A DNA stretch of 54,252 nt from a virus. Taxonomy: Duplodnaviria; Caudoviricetes. The DNA is taken from IMG/VR virus record IMGVR_UViG_3300017788_000032, positions 1-54,252 of that record; one strand, given 5' to 3'. The notes under the pieces were generated by a model. It saw nothing but the letters and a program-made list of their open reading frames with translations, was not told the origin of the DNA and searched no databases. Made by a program: the position numbers and the translations under genes. Below are positions 2,728 to 54,252 of the stretch, one piece after another; the first letter of the stretch is position 1, and the number at the start of each line of letters is the position of its first letter.

Positions 2728-4316
2728 TTATTATCAGAGTTATAAACTATATATTTGTCAGTATAAACAAAATCTAGACCACAATCTAACATTTTAAGCG
2801 CATCTTTATATGAATTTATAAGGGGTTTACCGTTTACATTAAAAGATGTATTAAGGAGAACGCCTATGCCTGAGTGTTTTTCAAATTCGGTAATTAAATC
2901 ATAAACCTTTTCATTCTGTTCACGTGTAACTGTTTGCAATCTAGCAGTACCATCAACATGAGTAATAGCAGATAGTTTTTCTTTCCATTCATCTTTAACT
3001 TTTGCATAAAAGCTCATAAATCTGCTCTCACCTTTCCAATAAAAATACTTTTCTACATCTTCTAACCGTACAATAGGCGCAAAAGGTCTAAACCATTCAC
3101 GCTTTTTTACCTTTTCATTTAAAATGTCCTTCATTCCCGGTATAGAAGGATTGCACATTATACTTCTATTACCTAATGCACGAGGCCCGTGTTCTGAATT
3201 ACCCCAAATAGTTCCTATAATTCTTCCTTCCGCTAAAAGCTTTGCAGCTTTTTCTAATGTATAAGGGTCAGTCCATTTACTTTCTATAAGCTCAAAAAAT
3301 GCATTGGGATCTATTGGAGGAAGCCCACCGTATGTCACATCAACTTGCTCTAAAGGTTTTTCAAAATCTAGAAGCATGCCTAGAGCTAGCCCACAATCAT
3401 TTGAATTTGGAGCTACAAAAACATCTCTGCCTGTTTTTTCTTTTAATTTAGTATTAAGAACAACATTTAAAGCGCATCCCCCTGTAATACAAATAGGTAA
3501 ATTTTTAAAATGATCTAGATAGGGCTCGATAATCTCAAAAAATACTTCTTCGAAAGCTTGCTGCGACGTTGTAGATAAATCTAATGATATATCACCTTCG
3601 AAGCGGTTACTGCTATCAAAGGTAATGCCAAGCTTTGTTCCTAAATCTTTTAAATAGCCTTCTATAATATTACCGTCGGGTTTTTTATAGTAAAACTCTT
3701 TAATATGAGGTAACCACTCATTTCTCACTTTACCATAGCCACAAAGACCCATTAATTTACCGGAATACACTAAATTACCTATGTTAATATCTGATTCAAA
3801 ATTAATATGACTACAATAGTGTCCAAAAATCATATATGCATAGCCCATATCAATATTATGACGAGCTATTTCTATGACACCGCCCTCTCGTGTAGCTGTG
3901 TATATATTAAAAAACCCGTCACTGCCACCGCCGTCAAAGCTTATTATTAATGCTTCAGTAAAGGGAGACTGGTAAAACGTACCTGCAGCATGTGCACGGT
4001 GGTGAAGGCAGGGTATATGGTTTTTCGCATTAATATATCTTTCAAAATAAAATTTTTCTAAACCGTTATCTGTACCGTAAACAACATCAGTGTTAGAAAA
4101 AATACAATTATCATAATCGTTATCTAAATTAAACTCTGTTTTTAAATAAGACATAATACCATCAAAAACTGTCTTAGCATTTCTACAAAGCCTATACTGT
4201 ACCATACCAAGGTTCTTTTTATTAGCAAATCTTTCTACTTCTAAAACACGATACCTACCATCATGCTTAAACGCAAAGCCACCGTTATGTGACCCGTAAA
4301 AAGCTATATTTTTCAT
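2724..4316 (-). CDS. O-carbamoyltransferase, NodU/CmcH/TobZ family
   Basis: HHRAHAA, DGGG, GKLMGL, GGCALN, EHGPRALGNRS, KKREWFRPFAP, HVDGTARLQTV and LNTSFN motifs. Confidence 0.93.
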   Translation of the reverse strand: MKNIAFYGSHNGGFAFKHDGRYRVLEVERFANKKNLGMVQYRLCRNAKTVFDGIMSYLKTEFNLDNDYDNCIFSNTDVVYGTDNGLEKFYFERYINAKNHIPCLHHRAHAAGTFYQSPFTEALIISFDGGGSDGFFNIYTATREGGVIEIARHNIDMGYAYMIFGHYCSHINFESDINIGNLVYSGKLMGLCGYGKVRNEWLPHIKEFYYKKPDGNIIEGYLKDLGTKLGITFDSSNRFEGDISLDLSTTSQQAFEEVFFEIIEPYLDHFKNLPICITGGCALNVVLNTKLKEKTGRDVFVAPNSNDCGLALGMLLDFEKPLEQVDVTYGGLPPIDPNAFFELIESKWTDPYTLEKAAKLLAEGRIIGTIWGNSEHGPRALGNRSIMCNPSIPGMKDILNEKVKKREWFRPFAPIVRLEDVEKYFYWKGESRFMSFYAKVKDEWKEKLSAITHVDGTARLQTVTREQNEKVYDLITEFEKHSGIGVLLNTSFNVNGKPLINSYKDALKMLDCGLDFVYTDKYIVYNSDNK

Positions 4317-4861
4317 TTCTTAATATATGCTACTTGATAATAAACTTTATCGCCAACATCAATTTTTACGCTTATATCCTTATTATCAAGATTTAATATT
4401 TTAAGTTCAGGATAAAGCTTTTCCATAGACTCGAAATTTAATGTAGGTTGTAAGTGACGTTCATAAACATTACCAAAAACAACATCTTGCGGTAAATTTA
4501 ATGGCACTACAGCAAGAAACTCTTTTACTCTATTGAGATATTTGTCAATAACAGTTCTTGCATCAGTCTCAGAGAGGTGCTCTAGCGTATCACCCATAAT
4601 TATAATATCGTAATCAAATTCAGAAAACTCAAAATCAATAATGTTACCTAAAAATAAATTATTATATTTTTGTTTCAACCCATACTTCTCTATATAAGGT
4701 TCAAAAATTTCTATGCCATCAATATCGCTAAAATAATTCTTTAATAAATCACAATATGTTCCTTCACCGGCACCTACATCTAAAATCTTTGACGAGGCAG
4801 GAAACGTATTTGTAAGATACTTAACAATATCTGTTCTTAAGTAAGGCCAACTACCAGGCAT
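4313..4861 (-). CDS. Class I SAM-dependent methyltransferase
   Basis: ILDVGAGEG motif I, DGIEIF, YDIIIMGDTLEHL. Confidence 0.88.
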   Translation of the reverse strand: MPGSWPYLRTDIVKYLTNTFPASSKILDVGAGEGTYCDLLKNYFSDIDGIEIFEPYIEKYGLKQKYNNLFLGNIIDFEFSEFDYDIIIMGDTLEHLSETDARTVIDKYLNRVKEFLAVVPLNLPQDVVFGNVYERHLQPTLNFESMEKLYPELKILNLDNKDISVKIDVGDKVYYQVAYIKK

Positions 4862-4871
4862 ATATTATATA

Positions 4872-5717
4872 CTACGAGACAAGAAATCTTCCATATGTGG
4901 GGTGTAATGAAGTAATATTAAATTCATTTAAGATATTTTTAATAAATGTTGCACCTCTAACATTAAGATAGATATTAAATAGACCATGCCTAACTCCTTC
5001 GACATATTGTACTATAAAAAAAGTATTAATATCTTTTTCATCTAATTCATCATAAGCTTTAAAATTTGAACATAATTTCTTATACCCGTAAATATTGTCG
5101 TTTTGCCATAATGTATATTTTTCTGTGCTAGGTATAATTTCTCTTCTTAACATCTTATTATCATAAAGTACTGAATTGTCAAAATCATGTAAGGTAATGC
5201 CTTTATTGTGTTCTAGTACTTTAAGAAGCGTTTCTTTTCTCCAAATACAGGGCTGAACAGAGCACATATATTGAAAATTATCTGGTATACAAAAAAGCTC
5301 GTCATTAAAAATTGATTGCTGATAAAGCTGCCAATTTTTTGATTTAGGATGACATGATGAAAAGCTAAAAAAATCTATATTATCACTATTCATAAGGTTA
5401 AGCAAATTCTCTAGATTTTTATAATCTATATCTCTAGATAAAAAATAATCATCACAAAAAAAGAAAATATATTTTTCGTCTATTTTAGATAAAGCATTTA
5501 TTAATGAGTAGGTAAAGTGACCGCCATTGCCTTGAAAATGCACATTTGTATCTATCACTGTAACAGTATCGTTTTTTTCAATCCTTACACCGTCGTTATT
5601 CGTAATAACAGTAAGGGGTATTTTATTTTGTGTATGCTTATAAAAAAGCTTTATAAAAAGATTTGCAATAGGAATGTATAGTTGATTGGTATAGCAAACG
5701 TATCTTAAGCTATTCAT
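4872..5717 (-). CDS. Putative glycosyltransferase (GT-A-like)
   Basis: YIFFFCDDYFL acidic motif, QPCIWRKETL, and position in the GT cluster. Confidence 0.6.
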   Translation of the reverse strand: MNSLRYVCYTNQLYIPIANLFIKLFYKHTQNKIPLTVITNNDGVRIEKNDTVTVIDTNVHFQGNGGHFTYSLINALSKIDEKYIFFFCDDYFLSRDIDYKNLENLLNLMNSDNIDFFSFSSCHPKSKNWQLYQQSIFNDELFCIPDNFQYMCSVQPCIWRKETLLKVLEHNKGITLHDFDNSVLYDNKMLRREIIPSTEKYTLWQNDNIYGYKKLCSNFKAYDELDEKDINTFFIVQYVEGVRHGLFNIYLNVRGATFIKNILNEFNITSLHPTYGRFLVS

Positions 5718-6508
5718 TGATGCTCGGTAGGATGACCTATTTTATATCCGTTGGGGGTAACTATATCACTTAATACGGTACCGCAAAACTGTATGTCAAA
5801 AGCTTTGAATCCGGCAACATGCGCTGCAACACCTATTTCAAACCCTTCCGCCCAAGTACCCCAAGTATATTCTTTATTAGCTAAAAAGTCATGTAATTTT
5901 TTCCACTCTTCATAAAACTTTAAAATTTGATTATTTTTGTTTTCAAAAACAAAAAAGTATTCTGCAGGGAGACCTGCTCCATTCCATTCATTATGCGAAC
6001 CAGGCTGTAACTCAAACGCTTTTATTTTATGCCAAAATATATTTGGTTGAGGGTTTGTGGCTAGTTTATCGAAATATTCAGCTTTTACTGGGCCTAGCTT
6101 TAAATCGGCCCGAGGAGCAAAGAAATTAAAACCTTTAGACGTTTTATCTAGAAGATATGTTTCAATTACCTCGGTATTCCAATTTCTTATTGAATTGTCA
6201 CAATCAGTAAAGTAAATATAATCAGCCTGTACGTGCTCAAACGGCTTTAAGCAAATATATCTCATATTAAAATTAAAATCAGATGCTCCTTTACCGGGGC
6301 CAATAAAAAGTCTTATCTTAAAATCGTTTCTATCAATTTTTTGAATTATTATTCTATCGGTTTTAAATTTTTCCTCAATAACCTCAGGCAAATCTGTTGC
6401 AACAACTATTGACGCAGGTGTTTTATTAAGAACATCATCTGCAAACCTTAAAAAATAATCTGTTGTATAGTTTTTACCGAGGCTTAGTGTTGCAAAGCAA
6501 TGTTTCAT
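5714..6508 (-). CDS. Putative glycosyltransferase (DxD motif)
   Basis: FATLSLGKNY...VVATD...YIYFTDCD, GT-A-like layout; 4-nt overlaps with both neighbours. Confidence 0.5.
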   Translation of the reverse strand: MKHCFATLSLGKNYTTDYFLRFADDVLNKTPASIVVATDLPEVIEEKFKTDRIIIQKIDRNDFKIRLFIGPGKGASDFNFNMRYICLKPFEHVQADYIYFTDCDNSIRNWNTEVIETYLLDKTSKGFNFFAPRADLKLGPVKAEYFDKLATNPQPNIFWHKIKAFELQPGSHNEWNGAGLPAEYFFVFENKNNQILKFYEEWKKLHDFLANKEYTWGTWAEGFEIGVAAHVAGFKAFDIQFCGTVLSDIVTPNGYKIGHPTEHQ

Positions 6509-7458
6509 TGTATAAGCTTATTTATATCGAATACTTTATCAAATATACATGTTTGCGAATCTAAAGTACAGTTCTCTAGATACCATTTACGAGCATTTTG
6601 CCCTATATGCTCATATTTAGAGTAGTTGTTAACTATGTCATTATATTTTTCGACTATTGAATCTCTTAGTTCTTCATGATTAACCCTGGAAAGCCCGTCT
6701 GCAAATTTTGCATTTGGACATACGTCTACGTAATGTACGCCGGGGACCAAGGGATTATGAAAAATACAATTTAATTTTGGTCTAATTACAATTTTGCCCA
6801 GACCAAAGAGCTCAATATCGCGGTTACATATTTCTCCGGCCCCGTTTAAGCTCAAAGAACATATCTCGTTATGCATTTCTTTTACGTAATCATTAAAAGT
6901 TAGTCTTGAATTAGTAAATGATATGTTTTCGTGTTTTAAATTATTAGCTAACCACTCTCTTTCTTGATATAAAAACCCTCTAAAACAAATATTTTTACTT
7001 TTTTGTGATGGTATTTTTAAAGTTGTTTCAATATCTTTTACAAAAGATGTATTATATACATCGTATGTATACGGAATATGAACGCTATTTATATTTTCAG
7101 GGTATTCCCACTCTTCGCTTTGAAATGTATTTTTAAATTCATTATAAAAGTCATAATTAAATCCGCTAGAACATATAAACTGTTGCATATTTTTAGGCTG
7201 CCATTCAAAAAGCTTATTAAATACCCAAATATTTCTATCGTTAAGTGATACTATAGTGTATTTTTCTGTATCATTACAGAATATAGTAAAAATATGAGCG
7301 GAATATCTGCTGTAAATATTACCGTTTTTATTATCTTGAGGTATAAACGTGTGTTCGGGATATTTAGCTTTAAGATGGTCGAACAATCTTTGAAAAAGAT
7401 GCTGCCTATACCAAGTTGTATACTGGGCACCTTGCCAGAAGTACACATTAAAAGTCAT
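6505..7458 (-). CDS. Putative GT-B-type glycosyltransferase (exostosin/Glyco_trans_1_2-like C-terminus)
   Basis: ICFRG...YVKEM...SLSLNGAGEICNRDIELFGLG...PGVHYV...IGQNARKWY. Confidence 0.6.
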   Translation of the reverse strand: MTFNVYFWQGAQYTTWYRQHLFQRLFDHLKAKYPEHTFIPQDNKNGNIYSRYSAHIFTIFCNDTEKYTIVSLNDRNIWVFNKLFEWQPKNMQQFICSSGFNYDFYNEFKNTFQSEEWEYPENINSVHIPYTYDVYNTSFVKDIETTLKIPSQKSKNICFRGFLYQEREWLANNLKHENISFTNSRLTFNDYVKEMHNEICSLSLNGAGEICNRDIELFGLGKIVIRPKLNCIFHNPLVPGVHYVDVCPNAKFADGLSRVNHEELRDSIVEKYNDIVNNYSKYEHIGQNARKWYLENCTLDSQTCIFDKVFDINKLIQ

Positions 7459-7462
7459 TAGA

Positions 7463-8731
7463 CTAACTTACTTTATTGCCAATGATACCTGTAATGGGAT
7501 CAGCCCATCCTTTAGATACGCTATGAGGCCAAACAATCCAGCTATGCGGCATTTGCTCACAATTAAATTCACGCCATACTTTACAATATTTGTCCGGATC
7601 ATTAAACATCCTTTCAATTTCAGCTTTATCAGCATCTTTTCTAAACACATCCTTACCTTCTTTATCTTTGAAGGCTACACACCAAAAATCATAATCCTTT
7701 TCAGGGACTTGATCATATCTTACATCAATACAATGCTTAAAGATATTTAAAAACGATTTATCATACTCTTCTTGTGTCATACTATCATTTGGATTAGGTG
7801 GGAGCTTGTTATCTAACGTCCATCTTTGAACTGCGCGCTTTTTAAAGCATAGACCTGCATACTTTTCGTAGTCTTGTACAGATCTTATTTTGCCAAAATC
7901 ATATTTACCAAAATCAATGTCTTTCTTTTCACCATCCATTTCAAATAGCTTACGGTTACGAGAATGTGAGTCCTTATTAAACTGACCCCACGCAGGTACA
8001 TCATCCCAATGCTTAGATCTACCTTTCCTGGTATATTCGTGCCAAGCCACTATAATGTGGGGGTGAAATAAATCGTATCCCCAGGTATAAGAGCGCACTG
8101 CGAGGTTAATTTCTTCGCCATGAAAATAATAATAAGGATCATAAGGCACTTCTTTAACCCACTTACCTAAAGTAAAGATAAAGTGTGCAGAAACAAATCT
8201 AGCAGGAAGAGGTTCTGTACGAGATTTAAAATCATCTATAGAAGCGGGAAGAAAAAATACTGCACCTTCAGGAATAAATCTATCAAAATTCATCTTCCAG
8301 GGCACCTGCACGCGTGCACCGGGGTCATTATCTGGATCAAAGCTAGATATATAACCAGTTAAAAGAGGCTTTTTATGTCCCTTTTTCTGTAGCTGTTTAA
8401 CCATGTTAATACATTTTTCATCCCAATGCTCTACGAAACGATGGTGACTATCTAACTGCAAATAATATTTTTCATTTGTATAGTTGTCTTGGATTCTGCT
8501 ACGTGCCCAGCATGTCCCTTTGCTTTCTTTATATGGAATGGGTATAATCTTAAATCTTTTATCCTGAGAAAACTCTTCTAATGAATCATTTTCATCTTTT
8601 TGCCAGCAAATACTAAAGACAAGGTTCTCCGGGTGCTTTGCTTTCGCAATACAGTCTCTTAATGTTAGAAGAAGTTGTGGATCACGGTACGAGGCAATAG
8701 ATATAAAGATCTTATTATTAGCGCTTTTCAC
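7463..8731 (-). CDS. GT60-like polypeptide/hydroxyproline N-acetylglucosaminyltransferase
   Basis: IFISIASYRD, GTCWAR, YYLQLDSHHRF (DSH motif), FHGEE and LAVRSYTWGYD follow the Gnt1/GT60 pattern. GTG start. Confidence 0.82.
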   Translation of the reverse strand: MKSANNKIFISIASYRDPQLLLTLRDCIAKAKHPENLVFSICWQKDENDSLEEFSQDKRFKIIPIPYKESKGTCWARSRIQDNYTNEKYYLQLDSHHRFVEHWDEKCINMVKQLQKKGHKKPLLTGYISSFDPDNDPGARVQVPWKMNFDRFIPEGAVFFLPASIDDFKSRTEPLPARFVSAHFIFTLGKWVKEVPYDPYYYFHGEEINLAVRSYTWGYDLFHPHIIVAWHEYTRKGRSKHWDDVPAWGQFNKDSHSRNRKLFEMDGEKKDIDFGKYDFGKIRSVQDYEKYAGLCFKKRAVQRWTLDNKLPPNPNDSMTQEEYDKSFLNIFKHCIDVRYDQVPEKDYDFWCVAFKDKEGKDVFRKDADKAEIERMFNDPDKYCKVWREFNCEQMPHSWIVWPHSVSKGWADPITGIIGNKVS

Positions 8732-22743: not shown

Positions 22744-24867
22744 TTAACTGTCTTTCTTATTATCACATTCAAAGAATGTCTTATAAAAGTCTTTAAATAT
22801 TTGTCCAAAATCAGGAACAAGACCTTTAATCATTTTAACAAAATCATCACCCTTAGGGAACTTGGGTATTAAAGCTTTAATCTTATCTTGAAGTGATTCG
22901 AAGTCGAAATCAATATCGCCATTTACAAGATTACCAAAATCGACCTTACCAATAACTGGTAATCTAAAATCACAAACAATATTCTTTAGACTTTGAGCTG
23001 TTTGAAATACGGATTGAGGGTTGTTGAGATTAGAAAAGCTTGTATTTGAAAGTAGAGCATATATTTCTGGAAATGATCCTGGATCGATTGAAGGTAAAGC
23101 GTTAGGTAGATTATTAATAGGAGCAGAAAGCAGTAAAGGAATAGAATTTAATGATTCTGTTAAATTAGAAATAGGAGCTGTAAGGCCTTGAAGACCAGGC
23201 ATACTGGTAATACCCACTTGATCTACCTTATTTTGAAGTTCTGCAAGTAAAGTATTAGGGGCTTTCAAAGAAGCTAGAGCAGAATCAAGCTTTGCTTGTG
23301 CGGATTCGGTATATGATATAGGAAGCTGAGTAATTTTATACTCTCTTTCTTGATATTTAAATATATCATCTATTTCACCGGTTGTGGGGTTGTTAGTTTG
23401 CGTAAAACAATCTTTAACACACAGAAAATCACCTATAGTTCTAGAACTTATAGAGTGTTTATACTTTTTCTGTAGTAAGTCTACTAGTTGTATCTTTCCT
23501 TCAACATTAATTTCATAGTATATGCTGTCTATACGTTGTAAATTTTTAGATTCTGTATCTCTTGGGTTATATCCGGTATTATCATTTAAGTTGCTGAAGT
23601 AAGAAACATAATCTCCGGTATTTTCAAATGTAGATGTAATTTCAGCTGTATAGTCTGGCTGAGCTGGTACATTATTGTTGTAGTAATTTATGTCTGTAAC
23701 TAAATTTAATGAATGAGGTTGAGTGGTATCTGTAGCAATATTGGTTTCATCAGATGTTTTTTGAAGGTTAACAACGTTTTGCTTTAAAATTTCAGTGGTG
23801 TCTGAACTAGCATTCTCTGAAACTACAACTAGCTCTTCTGGTAATTTGTTAGAAATTGATCCAGGTATTACATCTGGTGCCCCATAATTATTAGGAATGT
23901 CAAAAAACGGTGAAATGGTGTCGTTGTACTGGGTATTTGTTAATGTACCGATACTATCGCTTGCAGGGCTAAAGAAAAAATCGTCACCATAAGAAATTTG
24001 ATCGGAAGAATACTCAGCATTTACCTGTGTTTGTATTTCATCTGGTAGTCCAAAGTATTTTTTATACCAAAAGAAAGAAAAGTCATTCGGGTATTCCTTT
24101 AAACTGGTATTTAATTCATTAAAAAATGCAGTTTGATCTTCGATTGGGTTGGGTGAAGTCTTTGTTTTATTGTATTTTATAGCAGTCTGGATTTGAGGTT
24201 GTAGATTTCCTGGCGATGTAGGTTTAGGGGGCTGCGTAGTAGGCGGTGTTTGAGTGTTAGGCTTAGGAAAAGAAGTTTGTTTTGGAGTAAAATTAGGTGG
24301 AATTTTATTAGCTTTAATTTCCCAATGCCAGTTTTCGCCTGCTATATTATTAAAACCGTAATTTTTTGCGTTGTTTCTTAACCATCTTAATGTTTCAGGG
24401 CTACTGGAAACAGAAATATCTAATGCTAACCCTAATCCGTGATTAGAAGTTCCGGGTCTTGCAGCTCCTCCCCCTTTAGCAGGATTATAAGGCCCTAGTT
24501 TTTTATATAATCTTACCTGTTCTTCATACGACCTATAACTATCATTTATTTTAAAGGTACGACCGGTATCTCTCTCAAAGTCAGCTTTCATTTTACTGTA
24601 TTGCTCTGCAACATAAGGATTAAGATAATGACCATTTCCTATGGAAACTAGTTGATTTGGGTCACTAGTACTGAGCCTACCGTTAAGACCAAAGCTAGCC
24701 CTGCCGCTTCTTCCGCTTGTACCTGTTCCTAAATCACTGCTAGACTCCTGATTACTGCCTATAGCTGTTGGAAAGGTAGTATTTCTATTAACCAGATCTA
24801 TATTTTTGGAAGGAGCTACAAAAGAAAGATCAGGATAACTAGTTCTTGTATTTGTTTTAACAGCCAT
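22744..24867 (-). CDS. Baseplate-region protein with an N-terminal M15 (VanY-like) Zn peptidase domain
   Basis: SYRSYEEQ, AARPGTSNHGLGLALDI and ENWHWE motifs, followed by a Pro/Thr linker and a long unknown C-terminal region. Confidence 0.8.
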   Translation of the reverse strand: MAVKTNTRTSYPDLSFVAPSKNIDLVNRNTTFPTAIGSNQESSSDLGTGTSGRSGRASFGLNGRLSTSDPNQLVSIGNGHYLNPYVAEQYSKMKADFERDTGRTFKINDSYRSYEEQVRLYKKLGPYNPAKGGGAARPGTSNHGLGLALDISVSSSPETLRWLRNNAKNYGFNNIAGENWHWEIKANKIPPNFTPKQTSFPKPNTQTPPTTQPPKPTSPGNLQPQIQTAIKYNKTKTSPNPIEDQTAFFNELNTSLKEYPNDFSFFWYKKYFGLPDEIQTQVNAEYSSDQISYGDDFFFSPASDSIGTLTNTQYNDTISPFFDIPNNYGAPDVIPGSISNKLPEELVVVSENASSDTTEILKQNVVNLQKTSDETNIATDTTQPHSLNLVTDINYYNNNVPAQPDYTAEITSTFENTGDYVSYFSNLNDNTGYNPRDTESKNLQRIDSIYYEINVEGKIQLVDLLQKKYKHSISSRTIGDFLCVKDCFTQTNNPTTGEIDDIFKYQEREYKITQLPISYTESAQAKLDSALASLKAPNTLLAELQNKVDQVGITSMPGLQGLTAPISNLTESLNSIPLLLSAPINNLPNALPSIDPGSFPEIYALLSNTSFSNLNNPQSVFQTAQSLKNIVCDFRLPVIGKVDFGNLVNGDIDFDFESLQDKIKALIPKFPKGDDFVKMIKGLVPDFGQIFKDFYKTFFECDNKKDS

Positions 24868-26453
24868 TACTTAGCCTCCGTGGTTAATTGTGTATTATCA
24901 TAATTATAAGTTTTAATACACCTTAATTCATTAAAATACTCGTTGCCCTCAAAAATATGCTTTACTTCTACTACAAAATAAACGCCTAAAATTTTACTAT
25001 CAAAATCGCTCCATGCAAAAGAACCATCTCTATTAATGCCTATAAATTTACCTGCTTGTCTATGTGTAGAACCGGGTACTTTAAATAAGACTGTATTGTT
25101 TAAAAATATACTATTAAAAAGTGCTTTATTTCTACCGGCTGAAAACTGTTGTAAAGTGTTATCTCCGATAACAGTAAATATATTCTTAACATTTTTTTGC
25201 TGTAATCTATATTCGCCGGGATAAAAATTAGGATAAGCCCCTTTAAAGCTTACTGAATTAAAGGGTTTTACGTAATTTGTGTCGTAAGTACTGACAGTAC
25301 TTTGAATGGTGTGTTGTGCTTGGTGAATATCGAATTGTCTTTCATCGTGATTATAGCTATGAACTAAAACTGATACAAGATCTTGTTGAGAATAGAGACC
25401 GGGCATAGGGTCATAATTAAAATTATTAATTGTGCCATACTTGTCTAAGAATAAAGCGTTAGGCGGAGTATAATCTACACTTTCAATTAAAAAGTTGTTT
25501 TCATCTGAATATAATCCCAGTTTGAAAGTTTCAAGATAACTTTCACCTATTTGAGCAGTACTGTTGTTATTAGATGCATCAAGCGCTTCATTAAAAATAC
25601 CATTTATGCTTTGAAAATTAAATTCAGATGAATTTCTTTCTATTCTCAAAAAGGCTTGATCATATTGATTAGAGGAACTAGAAACATGTCTAGATACTAT
25701 ATAATCCAGGCAGTCTAAACCTTTATATCCTGCAGGAGCTGAAAAGAATAGATTTGTAGAGCCTTCTTCGAATTTTTCACCTATAGTAACAGGCCACCCA
25801 TCATCTTCATTAAAGAAATCTAATAAAAATGTTTTTAAAGCGTTTCCGGTAGGTATACCCCTTTCTAAATTATCGGCATTATTAACATCGGTAGAATCTA
25901 GAAAATTTGCAGTTGAGTAATATGAGTTTTTTTCGCGTAGAAGTTCATAATACATATCCCAAAAATATAGTTTTTTAAGTTTTTCTCCAGGTGCTTTTCC
26001 AAGAATTTCTTCAGTTTCATATATACTAAAATTAAAAGATAGCTTAAATGCTTTTTCTGCATCTTTATCGTTTTCATAATCGTAGTTTGTATCTTCTGTT
26101 AAAACAGGCATGATATCAACAATTAAAACATCGCGTGAATCGCCTTTAAAAATAAATCCTTTTTCGGGCTTAAATGAGTTGCTATTAGAAGTTAAATTTT
26201 CCTGATTTTTAAAATCAATCATTCTCTCTGTGGCATCAAACGTATTGTTAATTACAATGTATCCTTTATGATAGAAATTGGTAAAATTATCTAAAATAAC
26301 AAGACTATTAATTGCGCCTATTTTTAATTGTTGATATCGACCATCTGCAGTAAAAAGACCTACATTAAACCTGTAAGGGTTGTTATTAATAATATTTTTA
26401 AACTCGTTATTGTTATTAGATAACTCACGAGACGAAGTAATTAAGTTTGCCAT
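24867..26453 (-). CDS. Baseplate hub protein, gp27-like
   Basis: C-terminal FKVPGSTHRQAGKFI...GVYFVVEVKHIF matches the hub/gpD pattern; follows a gp53-like gene. Confidence 0.6.
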   Translation of the reverse strand: MANLITSSRELSNNNNEFKNIINNNPYRFNVGLFTADGRYQQLKIGAINSLVILDNFTNFYHKGYIVINNTFDATERMIDFKNQENLTSNSNSFKPEKGFIFKGDSRDVLIVDIMPVLTEDTNYDYENDKDAEKAFKLSFNFSIYETEEILGKAPGEKLKKLYFWDMYYELLREKNSYYSTANFLDSTDVNNADNLERGIPTGNALKTFLLDFFNEDDGWPVTIGEKFEEGSTNLFFSAPAGYKGLDCLDYIVSRHVSSSSNQYDQAFLRIERNSSEFNFQSINGIFNEALDASNNNSTAQIGESYLETFKLGLYSDENNFLIESVDYTPPNALFLDKYGTINNFNYDPMPGLYSQQDLVSVLVHSYNHDERQFDIHQAQHTIQSTVSTYDTNYVKPFNSVSFKGAYPNFYPGEYRLQQKNVKNIFTVIGDNTLQQFSAGRNKALFNSIFLNNTVLFKVPGSTHRQAGKFIGINRDGSFAWSDFDSKILGVYFVVEVKHIFEGNEYFNELRCIKTYNYDNTQLTTEAK

Positions 26454-33117: not shown

Positions 33118-35409
33118 TTAGGTTACAATCTCCTGGAAGGTTGTTCCGGTTCTTGTAGCATAGAAATTAACCAATATATACTCTGCAGCTCTTACCGGTT
33201 TAATGTATATATCGACAATAACTGTATTATCATCAATAACTGCAGGTGTGTTGTTTCTCTCATCACAAATTAATAGATAGTCGTATATACCTTGTGTATT
33301 CTTTGCATTATCAAAGATTGGTGTCAAGCTATTAATAATCTGTGTACGGGTAAATAATGTGTTAGGCTCGAACAAGAAATACTTAACTGTATCTCTTGTA
33401 GCGGTTTCAAGGCTTAAGAACAATCTACGTACGTTAATACGGTCAAAAGCACTTGGCTTCTTCTGTAAAGTCTTTTGACCGAAGATTACATAACCTTCAG
33501 CAGGGAAGAACGTTACGGGATTTAAATTAATCTTATAAACCTGATCACGTTGCTTCTGCTTGGGATAAACTGCTAGATCTACTACACCGGTTAAAACGCC
33601 GCGAGTAAATCCTGCAGGAGCAAACCAGGGCTGGAAGTTACTATCGGTTGAAGCCATGGCAGCTGCAGCAAAGCCTGAGAATGGAACCCAAACTTGCTGA
33701 TTCGTTGCAACGTCGGCTACTTTAGCCAAATTAGCGAAAGCACAAGCATAACTTGAATCAATACTTGCAAACTGATTCTTTAGTGGCCAGTAAATATTGC
33801 TTGAAAACGAATTGCTAGGTATATCAAGAGTCTTAATATTTGCACCCTGTACGAATATATTTGAAATTACATCTGCTATAAAGAGATGGTCTTTACGAGC
33901 TTTGGCAAGATTTAGAAATGCGTTAGCAACTGCATTATAGCGTGTTACCGGAGTAGGTACTGAGCCGGGATTCTGTACTGTTAGTGCACTAACCAATGCA
34001 TCATAAGGTACAGTATCATCAAAGTAACCAAATGTTGAAGGGTTAAACGAATTAACATAAATTGTTCCAAGACCGGCTTCTACAGAGATATTAAGCGGAT
34101 AAAGATCGACATTGCTTATCTTTTCTGCCGCATTACTAATCTTAGTAGGAATATTACCGACAATCTTGGTTGAAAGATCGAGGTTACTGTAATCTCCTAA
34201 AGCATATAATGCGTTGGTTGTGCCTAGGATAGCGGCTAGTGAGACAACAGTACCAGAAGGTGCACCAACACGGGTTACATATTCTGAATCCGTTTCATCA
34301 GCTAGAGGATCAGCGAGTTGTGAGCTTAGGAAACGAGCCTTCTTAGTAGGTGCACCAGAGAGATTCAACCATGTTGTACCATTTTTATTAGAAATATTGG
34401 GATTAATAATGGTTGTAATGTTTGTCGAAGCTTGATCGGCAATCTCAATAAAGAAGCTTACTGCGGGGCCACCATTAATACTATTAATTTGTCTATTAGC
34501 GTCCATTGAGGCGGTATAACCTTCTTGTAGGACATAATCAAGAGCAATTGTATCTGGCGAATAGACGGACTGTCTTAGTTTGAATACACCAACTGTGATT
34601 GTATCATCAAATTGATTTGAAGAAATATCGAATGTTGGGATATTCTCGATTACCTCTGACAAGCTGCCTTGTAGGCCGGCTGAATCTGCAGAAAGAGTAA
34701 AGTTAAGTCTTACATCAGGGATGTTAACGTACTGTGAACCAAAAATTGCTGTGGTGTCTGAATTAATTGAATATACAGAATTGACATCGTTAAAAGGGGT
34801 TGCGGGGTTTAAATTGGTATTATCAATAACTCCGATATAGGTGCCTTCAAACTTTGAATTTATTGTTGATTGTGCTTTGTTAAGAACAATCATTCCTGCA
34901 GCACTAAGAGAATTGACGGTTGAAAATGTTGTTAATCCGTATGTATCGCCGGACCATGTAAATCCGTCACCTTTAAGAATTGAAAGGTATTCAGATTGAT
35001 TTAATTTTAAGTGGGTCGGTGAACCGAAGAAGTAAACACTGTTAGGCTGTGTAAGATCGCTTGTTACAGATCCGTTGACATAAGAGCGTACAGGGTAAAC
35101 GAGGGCACTATATTCATCGCTCGTGTCGATTCCGGCTCCAGCACCATAAGGTAAGCGATAAACAATTACGCTTGCAGGTGACTGTAGCGCTACTTTAACA
35201 GAGTGATAAAAATATCTCTCTGCTGAATTTGTAGGTATGCCAAAAATCTGTTCGAATTCGGAAAGCGAAGAAACGCTAATTGGTTCAGATGTTGGTCCTT
35301 TATCCGCAAACCCGGGAATAAATACGGTGGTTGCTGGGGTTCCTACACCTCTTAGCGATAAATCTCTTTCAATAATTTCAACCCCGGGACTTTGAATTGT
35401 ACGTGCCAT
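33118..35409 (-). CDS. gp18: Tail sheath protein, T4 gp18-like
   Basis: SPGVEIIERDLS, PWFAPAGFTRG, FDRINVRRLF, FEPN, ICDERNNT, IYIKPVRAAEYI. Confidence 0.97.
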   Translation of the reverse strand: MARTIQSPGVEIIERDLSLRGVGTPATTVFIPGFADKGPTSEPISVSSLSEFEQIFGIPTNSAERYFYHSVKVALQSPASVIVYRLPYGAGAGIDTSDEYSALVYPVRSYVNGSVTSDLTQPNSVYFFGSPTHLKLNQSEYLSILKGDGFTWSGDTYGLTTFSTVNSLSAAGMIVLNKAQSTINSKFEGTYIGVIDNTNLNPATPFNDVNSVYSINSDTTAIFGSQYVNIPDVRLNFTLSADSAGLQGSLSEVIENIPTFDISSNQFDDTITVGVFKLRQSVYSPDTIALDYVLQEGYTASMDANRQINSINGGPAVSFFIEIADQASTNITTIINPNISNKNGTTWLNLSGAPTKKARFLSSQLADPLADETDSEYVTRVGAPSGTVVSLAAILGTTNALYALGDYSNLDLSTKIVGNIPTKISNAAEKISNVDLYPLNISVEAGLGTIYVNSFNPSTFGYFDDTVPYDALVSALTVQNPGSVPTPVTRYNAVANAFLNLAKARKDHLFIADVISNIFVQGANIKTLDIPSNSFSSNIYWPLKNQFASIDSSYACAFANLAKVADVATNQQVWVPFSGFAAAAMASTDSNFQPWFAPAGFTRGVLTGVVDLAVYPKQKQRDQVYKINLNPVTFFPAEGYVIFGQKTLQKKPSAFDRINVRRLFLSLETATRDTVKYFLFEPNTLFTRTQIINSLTPIFDNAKNTQGIYDYLLICDERNNTPAVIDDNTVIVDIYIKPVRAAEYILVNFYATRTGTTFQEIVT

Positions 35410-36106: not shown

Positions 36107-37128
36107 TTAATATATAGGGTAGCGGATTATTACTACACCAGATCCTCCTGCTCCTCCTCCTGCTGGCCTGAAGTGTAATTGCCTCCACCACCTCCACCTC
36201 CTAAGCCATTAGTACCGGGTAACCCCATAGCATTGTTTGGGTAATCATACCAACAACCTCCAGCACCACCTCCGCCTAATCCTCCGTTAATACGAGTAAA
36301 TGCTACATTATAGTACGCATTGCTACCCGCGCCGCCGCCTGCATAAAAAGTAGCTATCCCAGTAATATTACACATTATACCGGTACCACCTTCACCACCC
36401 ATATAGTAAGGATCAGCAGTTTCACCGCTTCCTCCTGCTCCTCCGCCTCCACCGCCTGCATAGGATGTATAGGAGCCGTTCCCTCCACCACCTCCATTGC
36501 CCCCTAAAACACCATTAGTACCTTTTGAGCCTGCACCACCTGTAGCAAAAGGAGAATTATCTACTGCTCCTGCTCCGCCTCCACAGCCACCGGGTCTACC
36601 GTTAGTATAAGTTAAATTTGAGTTCCAATATGTGCCGCCTCCACCACCCCCGGCGACACTGTAAATATCGAATTGTGATGCACCGCCATCACCGCCTACA
36701 GTATTATTATACCTAACTGCACCGCCTGCAGTACCCCCTGCACCGACAACTACAGTCTTATTGCCAAAAGTAACTGGAACGCTGGTATTATAGTAAACGC
36801 CTCCTGCACCACCACCTCCAGCTAGATCCCCCCCTCCACCTCCGCCTCCACCAACTACTAAAACTTCTACCGTAGGGTTATTCTGTGCTAAAGAAATATT
36901 AAAAGAACTAGTTCCAACAGATGTAAAGGTATGTATTTTGTATCGTATACCTCTTTCTACAATTTCAGTTACACTGTTTCCCCCTGTTGCTATTATTAAA
37001 GGTCTGCCTGCAGCGGTAAGTGAAGCTACTGTCGTTTTATATGTTGTAGTTGCATCAGAAATAGGCAATACCTGTGATCCTGCAAGGTTGGGTACCGTAT
37101 TGAGCTGGTTAATGGTTACGTCGGCCAT
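36107..37128 (-). CDS. Glycine-rich fibre/decoration protein, apparent frameshift near 36165
   Basis: YKIHTFTS, VEVLVVGGGGGGG and YAGGG motifs. The canonical ending AGGSGVVIIRYPIY* is present in an adjacent frame ending at 36107; the ORF track stops at 36133. Confidence 0.8.
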
Positions 37129-45489: not shown

Positions 45490-45768
45490 CTATTCTACTG
45501 GTTGCAATGCCTTATTTTTAATGTATTGTGCTTTGCATACATTGTATATATCGTTAGGTATTTTCTTAACTATATCGATTATTTTTTCGGTTAACCCAAA
45601 CTCAAACTTATCTTTAGGAACCTCTCTAATCTTCATATCTGGTAAAGATAAAAATAAAAAAGAATCATTTAATTCTTCCATTAAAACGAACAATTCACCT
45701 AAATATTTACCCCCGGTAATAGCATAAATGTATCTCTCTTTGGGGTGCTTTTGTTTGAAAAAGATCAT
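45490..45768 (-). CDS. Hypothetical protein
   Basis: 92-aa ORF coupled to the upstream gene by a 4-nt overlap. Confidence 0.6.
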   Translation of the reverse strand: MIFFKQKHPKERYIYAITGGKYLGELFVLMEELNDSFLFLSLPDMKIREVPKDKFEFGLTEKIIDIVKKIPNDIYNVCKAQYIKNKALQPVE

Positions 45769-46601
45769 AATAACTTTATACTCTTTTCTACTGAAACAAA
45801 GGTATCAGGTAGTTCAAGACCTAGTCTTTTAATTTTATCAGTAGATAGAACGCAATTAGACCTACCGGCGACTATATCGAGGTCTTTAATTTCTACAAAT
45901 TTCCAATTCTCGTTTACCTTATGAATTGATTTAAATAAGCTTACAATTTCATCAGCACACATAGACTGGGTATTAACAACGTTATAAATTCCTGGTTCAT
46001 ATCTATCTAAAAACTTCAAAATAAATTCGTTTAAATCATCAATAGAAGTAAGACTATTTTGAGAACTAATTAAGTTATCGTATTTAAAAATTTTATAAAG
46101 ATAATTTTTACTCTCTCTTATTGAAGTAAAGGGCATTCTTATTCTCAAAATAACGTTATGCTGCTTTTCAAAAACAGTTTCAAATGCATGCTTAGTCTTA
46201 GAATAAAAGCTAGAAGAAGGATTAAAGAGTCCGAAATTTGGAACGTCGGTTTCTTCAAATGCTTTTTCATAACCAGTATATATACATCCGCTTGAGATGT
46301 GTATTGCTTTAATACCGTACCGCAAGGAAAGCTTATCTATTAGCTGAGGTACCACTACGTTATATTTCCAGCATAGTTCTTTATTTAATTCACAACCATC
46401 AACATTTGGAACTCCGGTATAACCGCAGCAATTAATAATATGAGAAAAATTATATTCTCTTAAAAATGATGAAAGTCTATACTCATTAGTATAATCTAAA
46501 ACGTTTTGATTAAATGCTAATACGTCAAGATTTTTTTCTGTTAGAAAGTTAAAAAGCTTAGTACCGATAAAGCCGCGACCCAGTATTAATATCTTGTGCA
46601 C
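45765..46601 (-). CDS. NDP-4-keto-6-deoxyglucose epimerase/reductase (RmlD-like, NRS/ER type)
   Basis: ILILGRGFIG Rossmann motif, GYTGVPNVDGCE, SSGCIY, PNF...SFYSKTK, LRIRMP. Confidence 0.85.
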   Translation of the reverse strand: MHKILILGRGFIGTKLFNFLTEKNLDVLAFNQNVLDYTNEYRLSSFLREYNFSHIINCCGYTGVPNVDGCELNKELCWKYNVVVPQLIDKLSLRYGIKAIHISSGCIYTGYEKAFEETDVPNFGLFNPSSSFYSKTKHAFETVFEKQHNVILRIRMPFTSIRESKNYLYKIFKYDNLISSQNSLTSIDDLNEFILKFLDRYEPGIYNVVNTQSMCADEIVSLFKSIHKVNENWKFVEIKDLDIVAGRSNCVLSTDKIKRLGLELPDTFVSVEKSIKLL

Positions 46602-51863: not shown

Positions 51864-51891
51864 ATAATATATTATTATTCCAACTAATCAA
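51864..51891 (-). promoter_or_regulatory. sigma70-like promoter of helicase
   Basis: TTGATT-16-TATTAT-6-ATG. Confidence 0.65.
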
Positions 51892-52571
51892 GAACCGTTA
51901 TACTCTTTTAAAAACGTCTCTTGACTCTTAGTAAAGCGTTTATCGCTTGGATTTAAAAGGCCGGGTGAACTGTGTAATACCCAGATTGGTGCAACCCCGA
52001 GTTTTAATTTCTTTCTATTTGCATCTATAGAGCTGGCGATGTCGTAATGATGAAAATCATAGTTTTCATTAAATCTCCATCCTGAGCTTATAGCTGCTTT
52101 AGTGCTTACGCTTAAAAACAACCCATCTAAAATTGTTACCCGGCTTGGTGTAGGACCGAAGGAAGTAACCATAATTTCATTCTTAGAACAAGGATGTGCT
52201 ACCGCTCCTCTTAAGTTGGTACTTTCAAATCCACCACACATTAAATGCCAAAGAGCAGGCTTCTTAATGCTAGGGTTAAGTCCCCCTGCAAGTCCAACAA
52301 TATCAAATAGCTTATGAGCTCTCTCTAGCTTTTCCAATATATTAAAATCGTCTACGTATACATCATCATGTAAAAAAACAATATAATCGTAATCGTTTTT
52401 ATATTTCTCTAGAATTACGTTATAATTTTTACTTAAACCAGTAGTATTATTAGTATTATAAAAAATATCAAACGACCCGTTATAACGGTTGTGAATCTTT
52501 TCTAAGGATTTTTGTGAATAACAATCATCGACGGAAGGAGCTCGTGTAGCAAAATAAAAAGCTGTTTTCAT
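51888..52571 (-). CDS. GT2-like glycosyltransferase (Glyco_tranf_2_5/StrF-like)
   Basis: GLSKNYN, YIVFLHDDV, IVGLAG, ILDGLFL, FHHYD. Confidence 0.75.
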   Translation of the reverse strand: MKTAFYFATRAPSVDDCYSQKSLEKIHNRYNGSFDIFYNTNNTTGLSKNYNVILEKYKNDYDYIVFLHDDVYVDDFNILEKLERAHKLFDIVGLAGGLNPSIKKPALWHLMCGGFESTNLRGAVAHPCSKNEIMVTSFGPTPSRVTILDGLFLSVSTKAAISSGWRFNENYDFHHYDIASSIDANRKKLKLGVAPIWVLHSSPGLLNPSDKRFTKSQETFLKEYNGS

Positions 52572-53251
52572 AAGTTAAAAAAAGGAGAATTACTAGAAAA
52601 TTTACCGACGGATGTAATGCCTTCTTTTGTTAATAGATATAGCAGACCTTGCTCTAATTCAACAAAGTCTTTTTCTTTTAAAGAAGAAAAGTCGTTGGTA
52701 AGAAAATTAGCATAGACTGTACTTCCTGAGCGAGCCAAGTATATGTTACTAGACTTTTGATTATAAATCCAAATTCCGAACGTCCCTTTAAGCTGTGATA
52801 ATGCATTGCAAATAGCTGCGACCTCGTTAGTTGTTTTTCTGAAATAAAGCTCTATCAATGGAGCAATAACTGATGAATCTACTACATTATAAGACTTCTT
52901 ATCTGGTAATATCTTCTTTATTTCTTTATCATTAGTAAGAACTCCGTTGTGTGAAATAACCCAATCTTTCCATTGAAAAGGATGAGACGTAGAGGGTGAA
53001 AATGCTCTTTGTGCTGAAGTAGGTGCTTGAGTATGACCGAGAAATATATCAAAATCTGTAATTTTTTTTCGTCTTTTACCATATTCAATGACAAGACGGT
53101 TACTGAGTTGAACCACCCCAGGTGTCTTCAAAACAGCATGAATTTGCGATCCGATTAATAGACCGCCATAAGAAAATGTGCCTCTTTTCTTATTATTATT
53201 ATAGAGTTTTACGTAAGTTCTAAACTCTTTAGATCCAAATATGCCGCAAAT
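52568..53251 (-). CDS. Class II (Ntn) glutamine amidotransferase domain protein with an ATT start
   Basis: The frame extends 40 codons upstream of the ORF-track start, to ATT-TGC-GGC-ATA-TTT-GGA (MCGIFG). Also LGHTQAPT, HPF, HNGVL and VDS motifs. Confidence 0.85.
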   Translation of the reverse strand: MCGIFGSKEFRTYVKLYNNNKKRGTFSYGGLLIGSQIHAVLKTPGVVQLSNRLVIEYGKRRKKITDFDIFLGHTQAPTSAQRAFSPSTSHPFQWKDWVISHNGVLTNDKEIKKILPDKKSYNVVDSSVIAPLIELYFRKTTNEVAAICNALSQLKGTFGIWIYNQKSSNIYLARSGSTVYANFLTNDFSSLKEKDFVELEQGLLYLLTKEGITSVGKFSSNSPFFNL

Positions 53252-53258
53252 ATTAATT

Positions 53259-53298
53259 ACCTCCTAATTTATTATATGATAAAGAATAAATAATTCAA
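53259..53298 (-). promoter_or_regulatory. sigma70-like promoter plus Shine-Dalgarno, overlapping a divergent late promoter
   Basis: TTGAAT-16-TATAAT-5-AGGAGGT-7-ATT on minus; TAAATA 53287-53292, then 7 nt to ATG 53300 on plus. Confidence 0.75.
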
Positions 53299-53299
53299 G

Positions 53300-54189
53300 A
53301 TGAACAAAGACTCAAAGTTTATTTTTGAAGCTTATTTAGCTAAAAAACAAATAGTCTCAGAAGCACCTATATATGCTGACGACTTAAAATATACCGGGGA
53401 CATTGAAAAAGCTCCTGGCAAAGGCTATGGTATCGGTAAGGTTGCTGCAAAAGAAGGTAAAACTAAGGCAGAAGTGGCTAATAGAGTTTTAGACGCAATA
53501 AAAACAAAGCTGTTTAAACCCGCTGCTCACACCATAGATGGTAATGAATATCAGCTCTATTATCCCGGTAGTAAGATGAAGTTTAGAACAGATTTGGAAA
53601 ATCTTATTAAGAATGAATTAAAGCTTGGCGGTACAGAAGCAAAATATACTGCAAGAATTGTGGATAATCTACTAAATGTATTGAGGGTAGATGTTGAGGG
53701 CGGTACAGCTGCAAATCCTGCTCAAGTTAAACAAGCGGTCGTTTCTGGTGTTGAAGGCAAATCTGTTGCAAAAGGCCCTCAAAGCGCGCCCTCGGCTCCT
53801 GTAGCTAATAATTTTGTAAAAAATGATGTTAGATTTATAAAAGAATGGATGCCTATTTTTAGTGAACTTCCAGATGAAATCTCTGTTGCAAAGGGAGACA
53901 TTTATGATTCACCAGAACTTAGAAAAGAAGTAGAAGAAGCAATTACCCGTGCTTATGATGTAAAAATGGCAAGCGACAAAGAGCTTGTACAAGATTTTAT
54001 CGACTCATTAAAATACAAGGGTAGTTATTCGCCTGCGGCAGAAAAAGCCGCAGAAGGTGAAGGTACAGGTGAAGCGCCCACGGTTATGAATATCCTGAAG
54101 ACGACGACGTAACTGGTACACTCAGAGATATGGGTGCAATTGGTGGTCGCCGTGGCTTTGATCCGGGTGGATTTAGCTATGGAGACTAA
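53300..54189 (+). CDS. Hypothetical late protein, probable frameshift near 54085
   Basis: The ORF track ends at 54112. An adjacent frame EYPEDDDVTG...FSYGD* ends at 54189, 2 nt before the next ATG. N-terminus MNKDSKFIFEAY. Confidence 0.7.
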
Positions 54190-54191
54190 AA

Positions 54192-54252
54192 ATGGCAGAT
54201 GTAACTATTTCTCAGCTTTCTGTAGCTAATACACAGCCTAATAATCTTTTAC
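54192..54252 (+). CDS. Start of a fibre/decoration-type gene (truncated)
   Basis: MADVTISQLSVANTQPNNLL shares its N-terminal motif with the genes starting at 37128 and 41390. Confidence 0.65.
   Translation, partial: MADVTISQLSVANTQPNNLL

Follow-up and report, generated by a model that had tools for sequence, protein, structure and literature searches.

A probable Shine-Dalgarno-compensated AUU start codon in a phage amidotransferase gene, repeatedly exchanged in related loci with predicted leaderless AUG starts

To our knowledge, the only well-understood AUU start codon is that of the gene for initiation factor IF3 itself. According to PMC5499595, infC starts with AUU or AUC, an AUU start is found in only two E. 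coli genes, and AUU mRNA is the most sensitive to IF3. [quoted passage not shown] According to PMC5622118, SD sequences tend to compensate for weak start codons, and the change from AUG to AUU makes up one of 61,358 reconstructed start codon switches. A literature search returned no paper on an AUU-initiated phage amidotransferase or on leaderless T4-like late genes, and none of the terms 'start codon', 'leaderless' and 'amidotransferase' occurs in PMC9723584.

The DNA analysed here, called the window, is a record consisting of a single contig of 54,252 bp (33.9% G+C) that was examined at full length. Its source is an uncultured freshwater T4-like myophage, and the window is a fragment of that genome. 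It encodes a clamp loader, a gp32-like SSB, a DnaB-like helicase, a primase and a large terminase, and the structural genes comprise tail sheath and tube proteins and baseplate wedge proteins. For the terminase and the gp32-like SSB the nearest isolates, which are Synechococcus phages, Methylophilales phage Melnitz and Pelagibacter phage Mosig, are merely 31–37% identical, and for the amidotransferase and the ribosomal protein bS21 there are zero DNA or protein matches among 50,697 isolate phage records.

The minus-strand frame of the amidotransferase gene reads TAG (53266-53264) GAG GTA ATT AAT ATT (53251-53249) TGC (53248-53246) GGC ATA TTT GGA, and translation across the start gives (stop)EVIN-I-CGIFG. 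This confirms what a reading of the sequence alone (hereafter the sequence-only reading) had noticed, namely that ATT replaces ATG directly before CGIFG. The same reading had placed AGGAGGT 7 nt upstream of the ATT, exactly where a TTGAAT-16-TATAAT promoter has its predicted +1; these positions are correct (Table 1), while the promoter match is weak when taken alone. If one counts from the final G of GGAGG, the spacing is 8 nt, which lies within the E. coli range; the relatives have 8–10 nt. The anti-SD of the host may differ from that of E. coli. TTGAAT-16-TATAAT is the top promoter-like match in 52500-54252 (10/12), but by itself it proves little because six promoter-like sites were found in the scanned region and 5.5 are expected from shuffles. 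AGGAGG begins 5 nt past the end of the −10 box, and therefore the predicted +1 is its initial A or the G next to it. The predicted message would start with the SD itself and have a leader of about 14 nt. Folding of the predicted 5' 97 nt is no better than that of shuffles (z = 0.42), and we do not propose a hairpin that masks the SD.

Table 1. Coordinates of the features in the window.
Feature	Position	Strand	Remarks
ATT start codon	53249..53251	-	two independent assemblies; 60 unique related loci
Shine-Dalgarno AGGAGGT	53259..53265	-	at predicted mRNA 5' end
Invariant T at position −1	53252..53252	-	T in 60/60 ATT loci
−35-like hexamer TTGAAT, predicted early-type promoter	53293..53298	-	10/12 match together with −10 box
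−10 hexamer TATAAT	53271..53276	-	predicted +1 at 53265 or 53264
Out-of-frame TTG and mini-ORF TTG CGG CAT ATT TGG ATC TAA (6 codons)	53229..53249	-	overlaps ATT-TGC
Class II (Ntn) glutamine amidotransferase gene	52568..53251	-	227 codons and stop; mature protein predicted to start with Cys
GT2-like glycosyltransferase gene	51888..52571	-	Pfam Glyco_tranf_2_5, 38.2 bits; downstream of amidotransferase
TAAATA (T4-late-promoter-like) box of divergent gene 53300-54112	53287..53292	+	back to back with −35 region
Second well-spaced GGAGG	24875..24879	-	7 nt before ATG of gene 22744-24867
Phage ribosomal protein bS21 gene, 70 aa	50000..50212	-	Pfam Ribosomal_S21, 33.7 bits (cut-off 27)

The protein matches the Pfam families GATase_6 (35.5 bits, cut-off 27) and GATase_7 (28.4 bits, cut-off 25), and the closest solved structures in a PDB profile search are glutaminase domains of GlmS (1xff, E=3.7e-10). 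It is a stand-alone glutaminase domain; the fused synthase domain is absent. CGIFG, standing right after the ATT, aligns with the MCGIFG of relatives, and all 106 unique loci share its Cys. Removal of the initiator Met would expose this residue as Cys1. H100 N101 G102 and D124 S125 are invariant as well (32 sequences), and in the alignment they fall on HNG and D-T-E of GlmS. We take HNG to be the Asn-Gly oxyanion motif and the Asp to belong to the glutamine-site motif of this enzyme.

Whether the ATT is real was addressed with four sequencing runs, two of which (X5 and X7) are without coverage of 53249-53265. The X2 contig, from another study and with a depth of 34.5, covers 52700-53700 and has 12 differences, none of them in the ATT or the SD; the X3 contig, which comes from a third study, spans 52700-53310 and shows no difference at all. 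The ATT of the window is thus independently supported by two assemblies that carry the same ATT and SD. Sequencing or assembly error as the origin of the ATT is excluded by these contigs and by the 60 unique ATT loci. At 53266 X2 has G for A on the + strand, by which the in-frame TAG before the SD becomes CAG, as in several relatives (ATCAGGAGG), and because of this the TAG just before the SD is not itself conserved.

Gene annotation in public relatives is instructive in this respect. The closest homologues (64–78% identity) are annotated as proteins of 196–216 aa lacking the N-terminus and the catalytic Cys, one close homologue is called from an upstream Leu codon, and more distant relatives of 50–60% identity start with MCGIFG. 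Truncated close homologues together with MCGIFG in distant ones form the pattern that a conserved non-canonical start would produce. In 54 of the 60 unique ATT loci there is no in-frame ATG, GTG or TTG between the previous stop and the ATT, and in 35 of the 60 that stop lies at most 8 codons away; such a codon is present upstream in the remaining 6/60, at inconsistent positions.

These data also bear on the reading that the protein is not made from the ATT at all, either since TTG 53131 is used (187 aa, without Cys1), or since an upstream start and a propeptide are used, or since the gene is decaying. Some class II amidotransferases do carry a propeptide. ORF finders do give 52568-53131 from the TTG, and the public calls of relatives are truncated likewise. 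However, the 39 codons from the ATT to TTG 53131, including CGIFG, are conserved at the protein level with synonymous change in 60/60 loci, and the first canonical codon downstream is scattered among loci from residue 13 to residue 201. An upstream in-frame start is missing in the great majority of ATT loci, as counted above, and the frames are intact in all 106 unique loci. We regard this reading as highly improbable; propeptide and downstream-TTG starts were rejected on N-terminal conservation and on the upstream-start scan. The sequence-only reading had reached the same codon by a shorter way, from the need of class II enzymes for Cys directly after the initiator Met, so that translation must start here. 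As an argument this goes too far, as it ignores the class II enzymes that are made with a cleaved propeptide, B. subtilis PurF for example, and what stands of it is the lack of an upstream in-frame start in 54 of the 60 loci.

Comparison of related loci shows how tightly the ATT and the SD are linked. A scan of viral contigs with the single protein found nothing, and 160 loci came out of two alignment-based scans, with many loci present in both collections. The Cys start was located in 157 of these, all but L022, L123 and L154. The 155 loci with 60 nt or more of upstream sequence were used and make up, together with the window, 106 unique sequences, 60 with ATT and 46 with ATG. GGAGG is present within 22 nt upstream in 60/60 ATT loci as compared to 0/46 ATG loci. 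Its distance to the ATT is 8 nt in 34 loci, 9 nt in 17 and 10 nt in nine. The GGAGG stands in varying reading frames, and stop codons lie between it and the ATT (for instance TAA TAT ATT in L004), so that what is conserved is the RNA sequence, not a string of codons. The start codon itself is invariant, being ATT in 60/60 and never ATC, ATA, CTG, GTG or TTG, and the Cys codon after it varies (TGC in 47, TGT in 13). Conservation of the pair among orthologues therefore holds in part: the SD goes with the ATT in 60 unique loci, but 46 other orthologues use ATG.

The ATG loci are not wholly devoid of SD-like sequence. Weaker SD-like 4-5-mers lie 3–12 nt upstream in 4/46 of them, L056 and L138 have GGAGG 16 nt upstream, and L139 carries AGAGGAGAG. 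Hence the statement that ATG never occurs with an SD is true only for strong and well-spaced SDs.

The same linkage bears on another role that GGAGG might have. T4 RegB is an endoribonuclease that cuts GGAG in early SDs, and GGAGG could mainly be a RegB-like site by which the early message is shut off, the link to ATT being secondary. The phage is T4-like by its clamp loader, gp32-like SSB, sheath and baseplate, and GGAGG is otherwise rare before its genes, as such a role would have it. The pairing of GGAGG with ATT at 8–10 nt, never with ATG, is left unexplained in this way, and we give the RegB-like site very little credence. The RegB profile (PF10715) matched 0/29 contigs, a search in which the controls were unmatched too.

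A further constant of the ATT loci is the base at −1, which is T in 60/60 as compared to 15/46 ATG loci, while positions −2 to −8 of the ATT loci are variable. U at −1 pairs with A37 of the initiator tRNA and boosts initiation, as stated in PMC10018350. The invariant T fits such a U(−1):A37 pairing, as a weak start codon would need. Because ATT followed by TGY necessarily creates TTG, every ATT locus also has a TTG in the +2 frame. The ORF beginning with it has 6 codons in 45 of the 60 loci, and the TTG lies 10–12 nt from GGAGG. It may act as a decoy start that competes with the ATT. Frameshifting back from this overlapping TTG was considered as well and rejected, as it could not give an N-terminal Cys.

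The two start codons come with different predicted leaders. The pattern TTGAnn-N15-18-TAnA[AT]T is found in 46/60 unique ATT loci and in 29/46 ATG loci. Where it is present, the −10 box ends 18–22 nt upstream of the ATT (46/46) as compared to 6–12 nt before the ATG in 27/29 (8 loci at 6 nt and 12 at 9 nt). With the −10 box as close as 6–12 nt to the ATG, the predicted messages of ATG loci would therefore be leaderless or nearly so. The difference can be seen in its smallest form in L058 and L050 versus L055 and L054, whose proteins and promoters are near-identical; the only differences are about 11 inserted nt, by which GGAGG arises, and the change from ATG to ATT. A third layout with a longer leader is found in L045. 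L057 has a long-leader ATT layout, too, and between the divergent gene and the amidotransferase it carries a 244-aa ORF (L057:720-1454, minus strand in the locus) beginning MYYYIYKITNINNGKFYIGS, which by its motif we take to be GIY-YIG homing endonuclease-like.

The exchange between the two designs has occurred many times. Of the 106 unique proteins, 105 entered a careful maximum likelihood tree (the remaining one, of <180 aa, was dropped), with the first alignment column excluded. On this tree the start state changes 10 times, with at least nine changes forced by well-supported branches and a bootstrap range of 9–11. The SD changed alongside the start codon in 9/9 phylogenetically independent pairs (p=0.0039); a quick tree gave 5/5 independent pairs. 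It may be that some of the switches came about by recombination, which moved one 5' cassette, and not by separate mutations. If so, there were fewer inventions, and the pair would still have been selected repeatedly. The linkage of ATT and GGAGG in 106 loci together with the nine co-switches supports the conclusion that ATT plus SD is under selection as a translational element and did not arise by accident, and in this the sequence-only reading, which had called it deliberate, was right.

Taking these results together, we think it likely that the gene has a genuine AUU start compensated by an SD and interchangeable in evolution with a leaderless AUG. According to this explanation the transcript, of early and sigma-70-like type, would have the amidotransferase as its first cistron and 5'-AGGAGGU-N7-AUU as its 5' end. 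Pairing between SD and anti-SD would recruit ribosomes, the initiator tRNA would read AUU with the aid of U at −1, and the initiator Met would be removed so that the catalytic Cys becomes exposed. In relatives the alternative form would be a leaderless or near-leaderless AUG placed 6–12 nt after the −10 box. A strong SD would be present because AUU is a weak codon. If AUG without an SD is viable only at the 5' end and AUU only with a strong SD, start codon and SD have to switch together, which would account for their absolute linkage. The likely output is a modest translation antagonised by IF3 and dependent on IF2, and leaderless AUG messages have been reported to behave alike. Of this picture, anatomy, conservation and co-switching are shown by the sequences, and the transcription start, the reading of AUU by the ribosome and the level of expression are predictions.

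Why it should be AUU and no other weak codon may have a further reason. Because IF3 discriminates against it, as in infC, AUU could have been chosen as a sensor of initiation factors, so that more enzyme is made only in cells poor in IF3 relative to IF2 and ribosomes; the low-IF3 state would be the same condition that favours the leaderless messages of the phage. The ATT is invariant in 60/60 loci across at least nine switches, and plain down-tuning would permit many solutions. The published behaviour of AUU mRNAs, which PMC5499595 describes as repressed by IF3 and dependent on IF2, is what this idea draws on, and so is the IF2 dependence and IF3 antagonism of leaderless mRNAs in PMC4611024, given that many genes here look leaderless. 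On the other hand, the amidotransferase is no initiation factor, so there is no infC-like feedback loop. Besides, ATA or GTG followed by TGY would make an out-of-frame ATG or GTG, and the choice of codon is thereby more constrained than is apparent. We hold the sensor idea tentatively, as a possibility with a minor share of the probability.

The rest of the genome provides the background against which the SD of the amidotransferase gene has to be seen. Among the 56 ORFs of the window taken as genes, GGAGG lies 4–11 nt before the start in two, the amidotransferase gene and the gene starting at 24867. The claim that the former has the only correctly spaced strong SD in the window is thus wrong, as GGAGG also stands 7 nt before the ATG at 24867. 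The preceding gene contains this second GGAGG near its end and has a stop codon that overlaps the ATG (TAATG), so that the GGAGG may serve translational coupling. In a relative of 139.4 kb GGAGG precedes a canonical start in 2/184 ORFs, to which the amidotransferase gene is to be added (3 of about 185). Strong SDs are accordingly not common elsewhere, with 2/56 genes in the window and the similar proportion in the relative.

What many genes have instead is a promoter-like box placed directly on the start. TAAATA, often ATAAATA, ends 5–7 nt before 18/56 starts in the window (examples are 39348, 33118-35409, 36133-37128 and 53300), and the same placement was found for 44/184 ORFs of the 139-kb relative. 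In the divergent neighbour of the amidotransferase gene the box ends 7 nt upstream of the ATG at 53300. TAAATA resembles the T4 late promoter TATAAAT, as given in PMC9004378. With a box 5–7 nt away, transcripts would begin at the start codon itself, so that these messages are predicted to be leaderless. The description of the genome as otherwise poor in SDs and, by prediction, leaderless is in agreement with these counts.

In a genome of this kind the phage-encoded bS21 deserves attention, and the sequence-only reading had suggested that the element might sense the availability of the anti-SD. Put more precisely, the SD would report whether host or phage bS21 is on the ribosomes. The bS21 gene is situated 3 kb downstream in the same minus-strand block, where it lies among replication genes. 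It is found in 15/15 ATT contigs of the main clade. In Flavobacterium, according to PMC9976891, ribosomes without bS21 gain SD recognition and rpsU has a strong SD. Yet 0/3 contigs of other ATT groups (three groups) carry bS21, and 3/11 ATG contigs have it (L113, L117 and L139), in two of them beside the leaderless design; two of these three are sister groups of the main ATT clade. Since all contigs are fragments, the absences weigh little as evidence. The promoters here are sigma-70-like and presumably not of the Bacteroidia type, which also argues against such a sensor. A part for phage bS21 in the ATT mechanism is not supported by these distributions, and we consider the anti-SD sensor improbable.

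A broader idea would unite the two designs. SD plus AUU and a 5'-terminal AUG could be one class of start, stimulated by IF2, rejected by IF3 and possibly initiated by 70S ribosomes, on which these phages have built almost their whole gene set. If it is true, phage translation would be favoured once the state of initiation in the infected cell is altered, phage factors such as bS21 might set this state, and the amidotransferase leader would be the one place where the rule becomes visible, having been rebuilt there with an SD. We consider this speculation doubtful.

The neighbours of the gene offer hints at the function of the enzyme. The ATG of the GT2-like gene overlaps the stop codon of the amidotransferase gene (ATGA), and the same gene pair is present in the related locus L045. 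The GT2-like protein is only a candidate for the acceptor partner of the predicted glutaminase. At L045:2-472, two genes from the amidotransferase gene, there is an ORF with the C-terminal CGECTACSLRLQGF that we take to be QueC-like. This neighbour hints that the pair of amidotransferase and GT2-like protein may serve a pathway of nucleotide or DNA modification. Elsewhere in the window there is a block of sugar-modifying genes on the minus strand at 1069-8731 (HtrL_YibB-like, Nol-like carbamoyltransferase, methyltransferase and GlcNAc-type glycosyltransferase) and an RmlD-like epimerase/reductase at 45765-46601.

The SD-compensated AUU start has some practical consequences. Gene callers would systematically truncate genes of this kind, and the catalytic Cys is lost from their annotation. 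The family appears to follow a rule by which a leader goes with GGAGG, AUU and U(−1) and the lack of a leader goes with AUG, and nature has repeated this about 10 times. Pairs of native leaders are therefore suited for comparing SD plus AUU with leaderless AUG under varied IF3, IF2 and ribosome composition. Our results also add to the picture of aquatic T4-like phages with promoters directly on start codons.

Compared to known systems, the locus is closest to infC and pcnB of E. coli. As described in PMC5499595, there too an SD precedes the AUU, the AUU is kept among relatives and IF3 discriminates against the weak start. In our family AUU is conserved in all orthologues of this design (60/60). 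Unlike infC, the gene belongs to a phage and its product is an amidotransferase, and the autoregulatory loop through the product is absent. Unlike both infC and pcnB, the SD lies at the predicted 5' end with a leader of about 14 nt, and the orthologues alternate with a predicted leaderless AUG. The ATG orthologues would be similar to the leaderless cI mRNA of phage lambda, with the ATG 6–12 nt after the predicted −10 box, whereas the gene of the window is not leaderless and represents the SD-led alternative. The association of weaker starts with stronger or better conserved SDs was likewise noted by Belinky, Rogozin and Koonin in 2017 (PMC5622118), but their data are statistics on GUG and UUG, and here a single family shows about 10 changes between AUG and AUU, each with full gain or loss of GGAGG. 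Flavobacterial rpsU (PMC9976891) resembles our case in that a strong SD stands out among genes poor in SDs and bS21 is present as well, but the promoters in our phage look sigma-70-type, the presence of bS21 does not track SD plus ATT, and in that article, with 0 occurrences of 'AUU', the rpsU start is not reported as AUU. An AUU start of the infC and pcnB type was thus already known; its repeated exchange with a predicted leaderless AUG is the new part to be noted.
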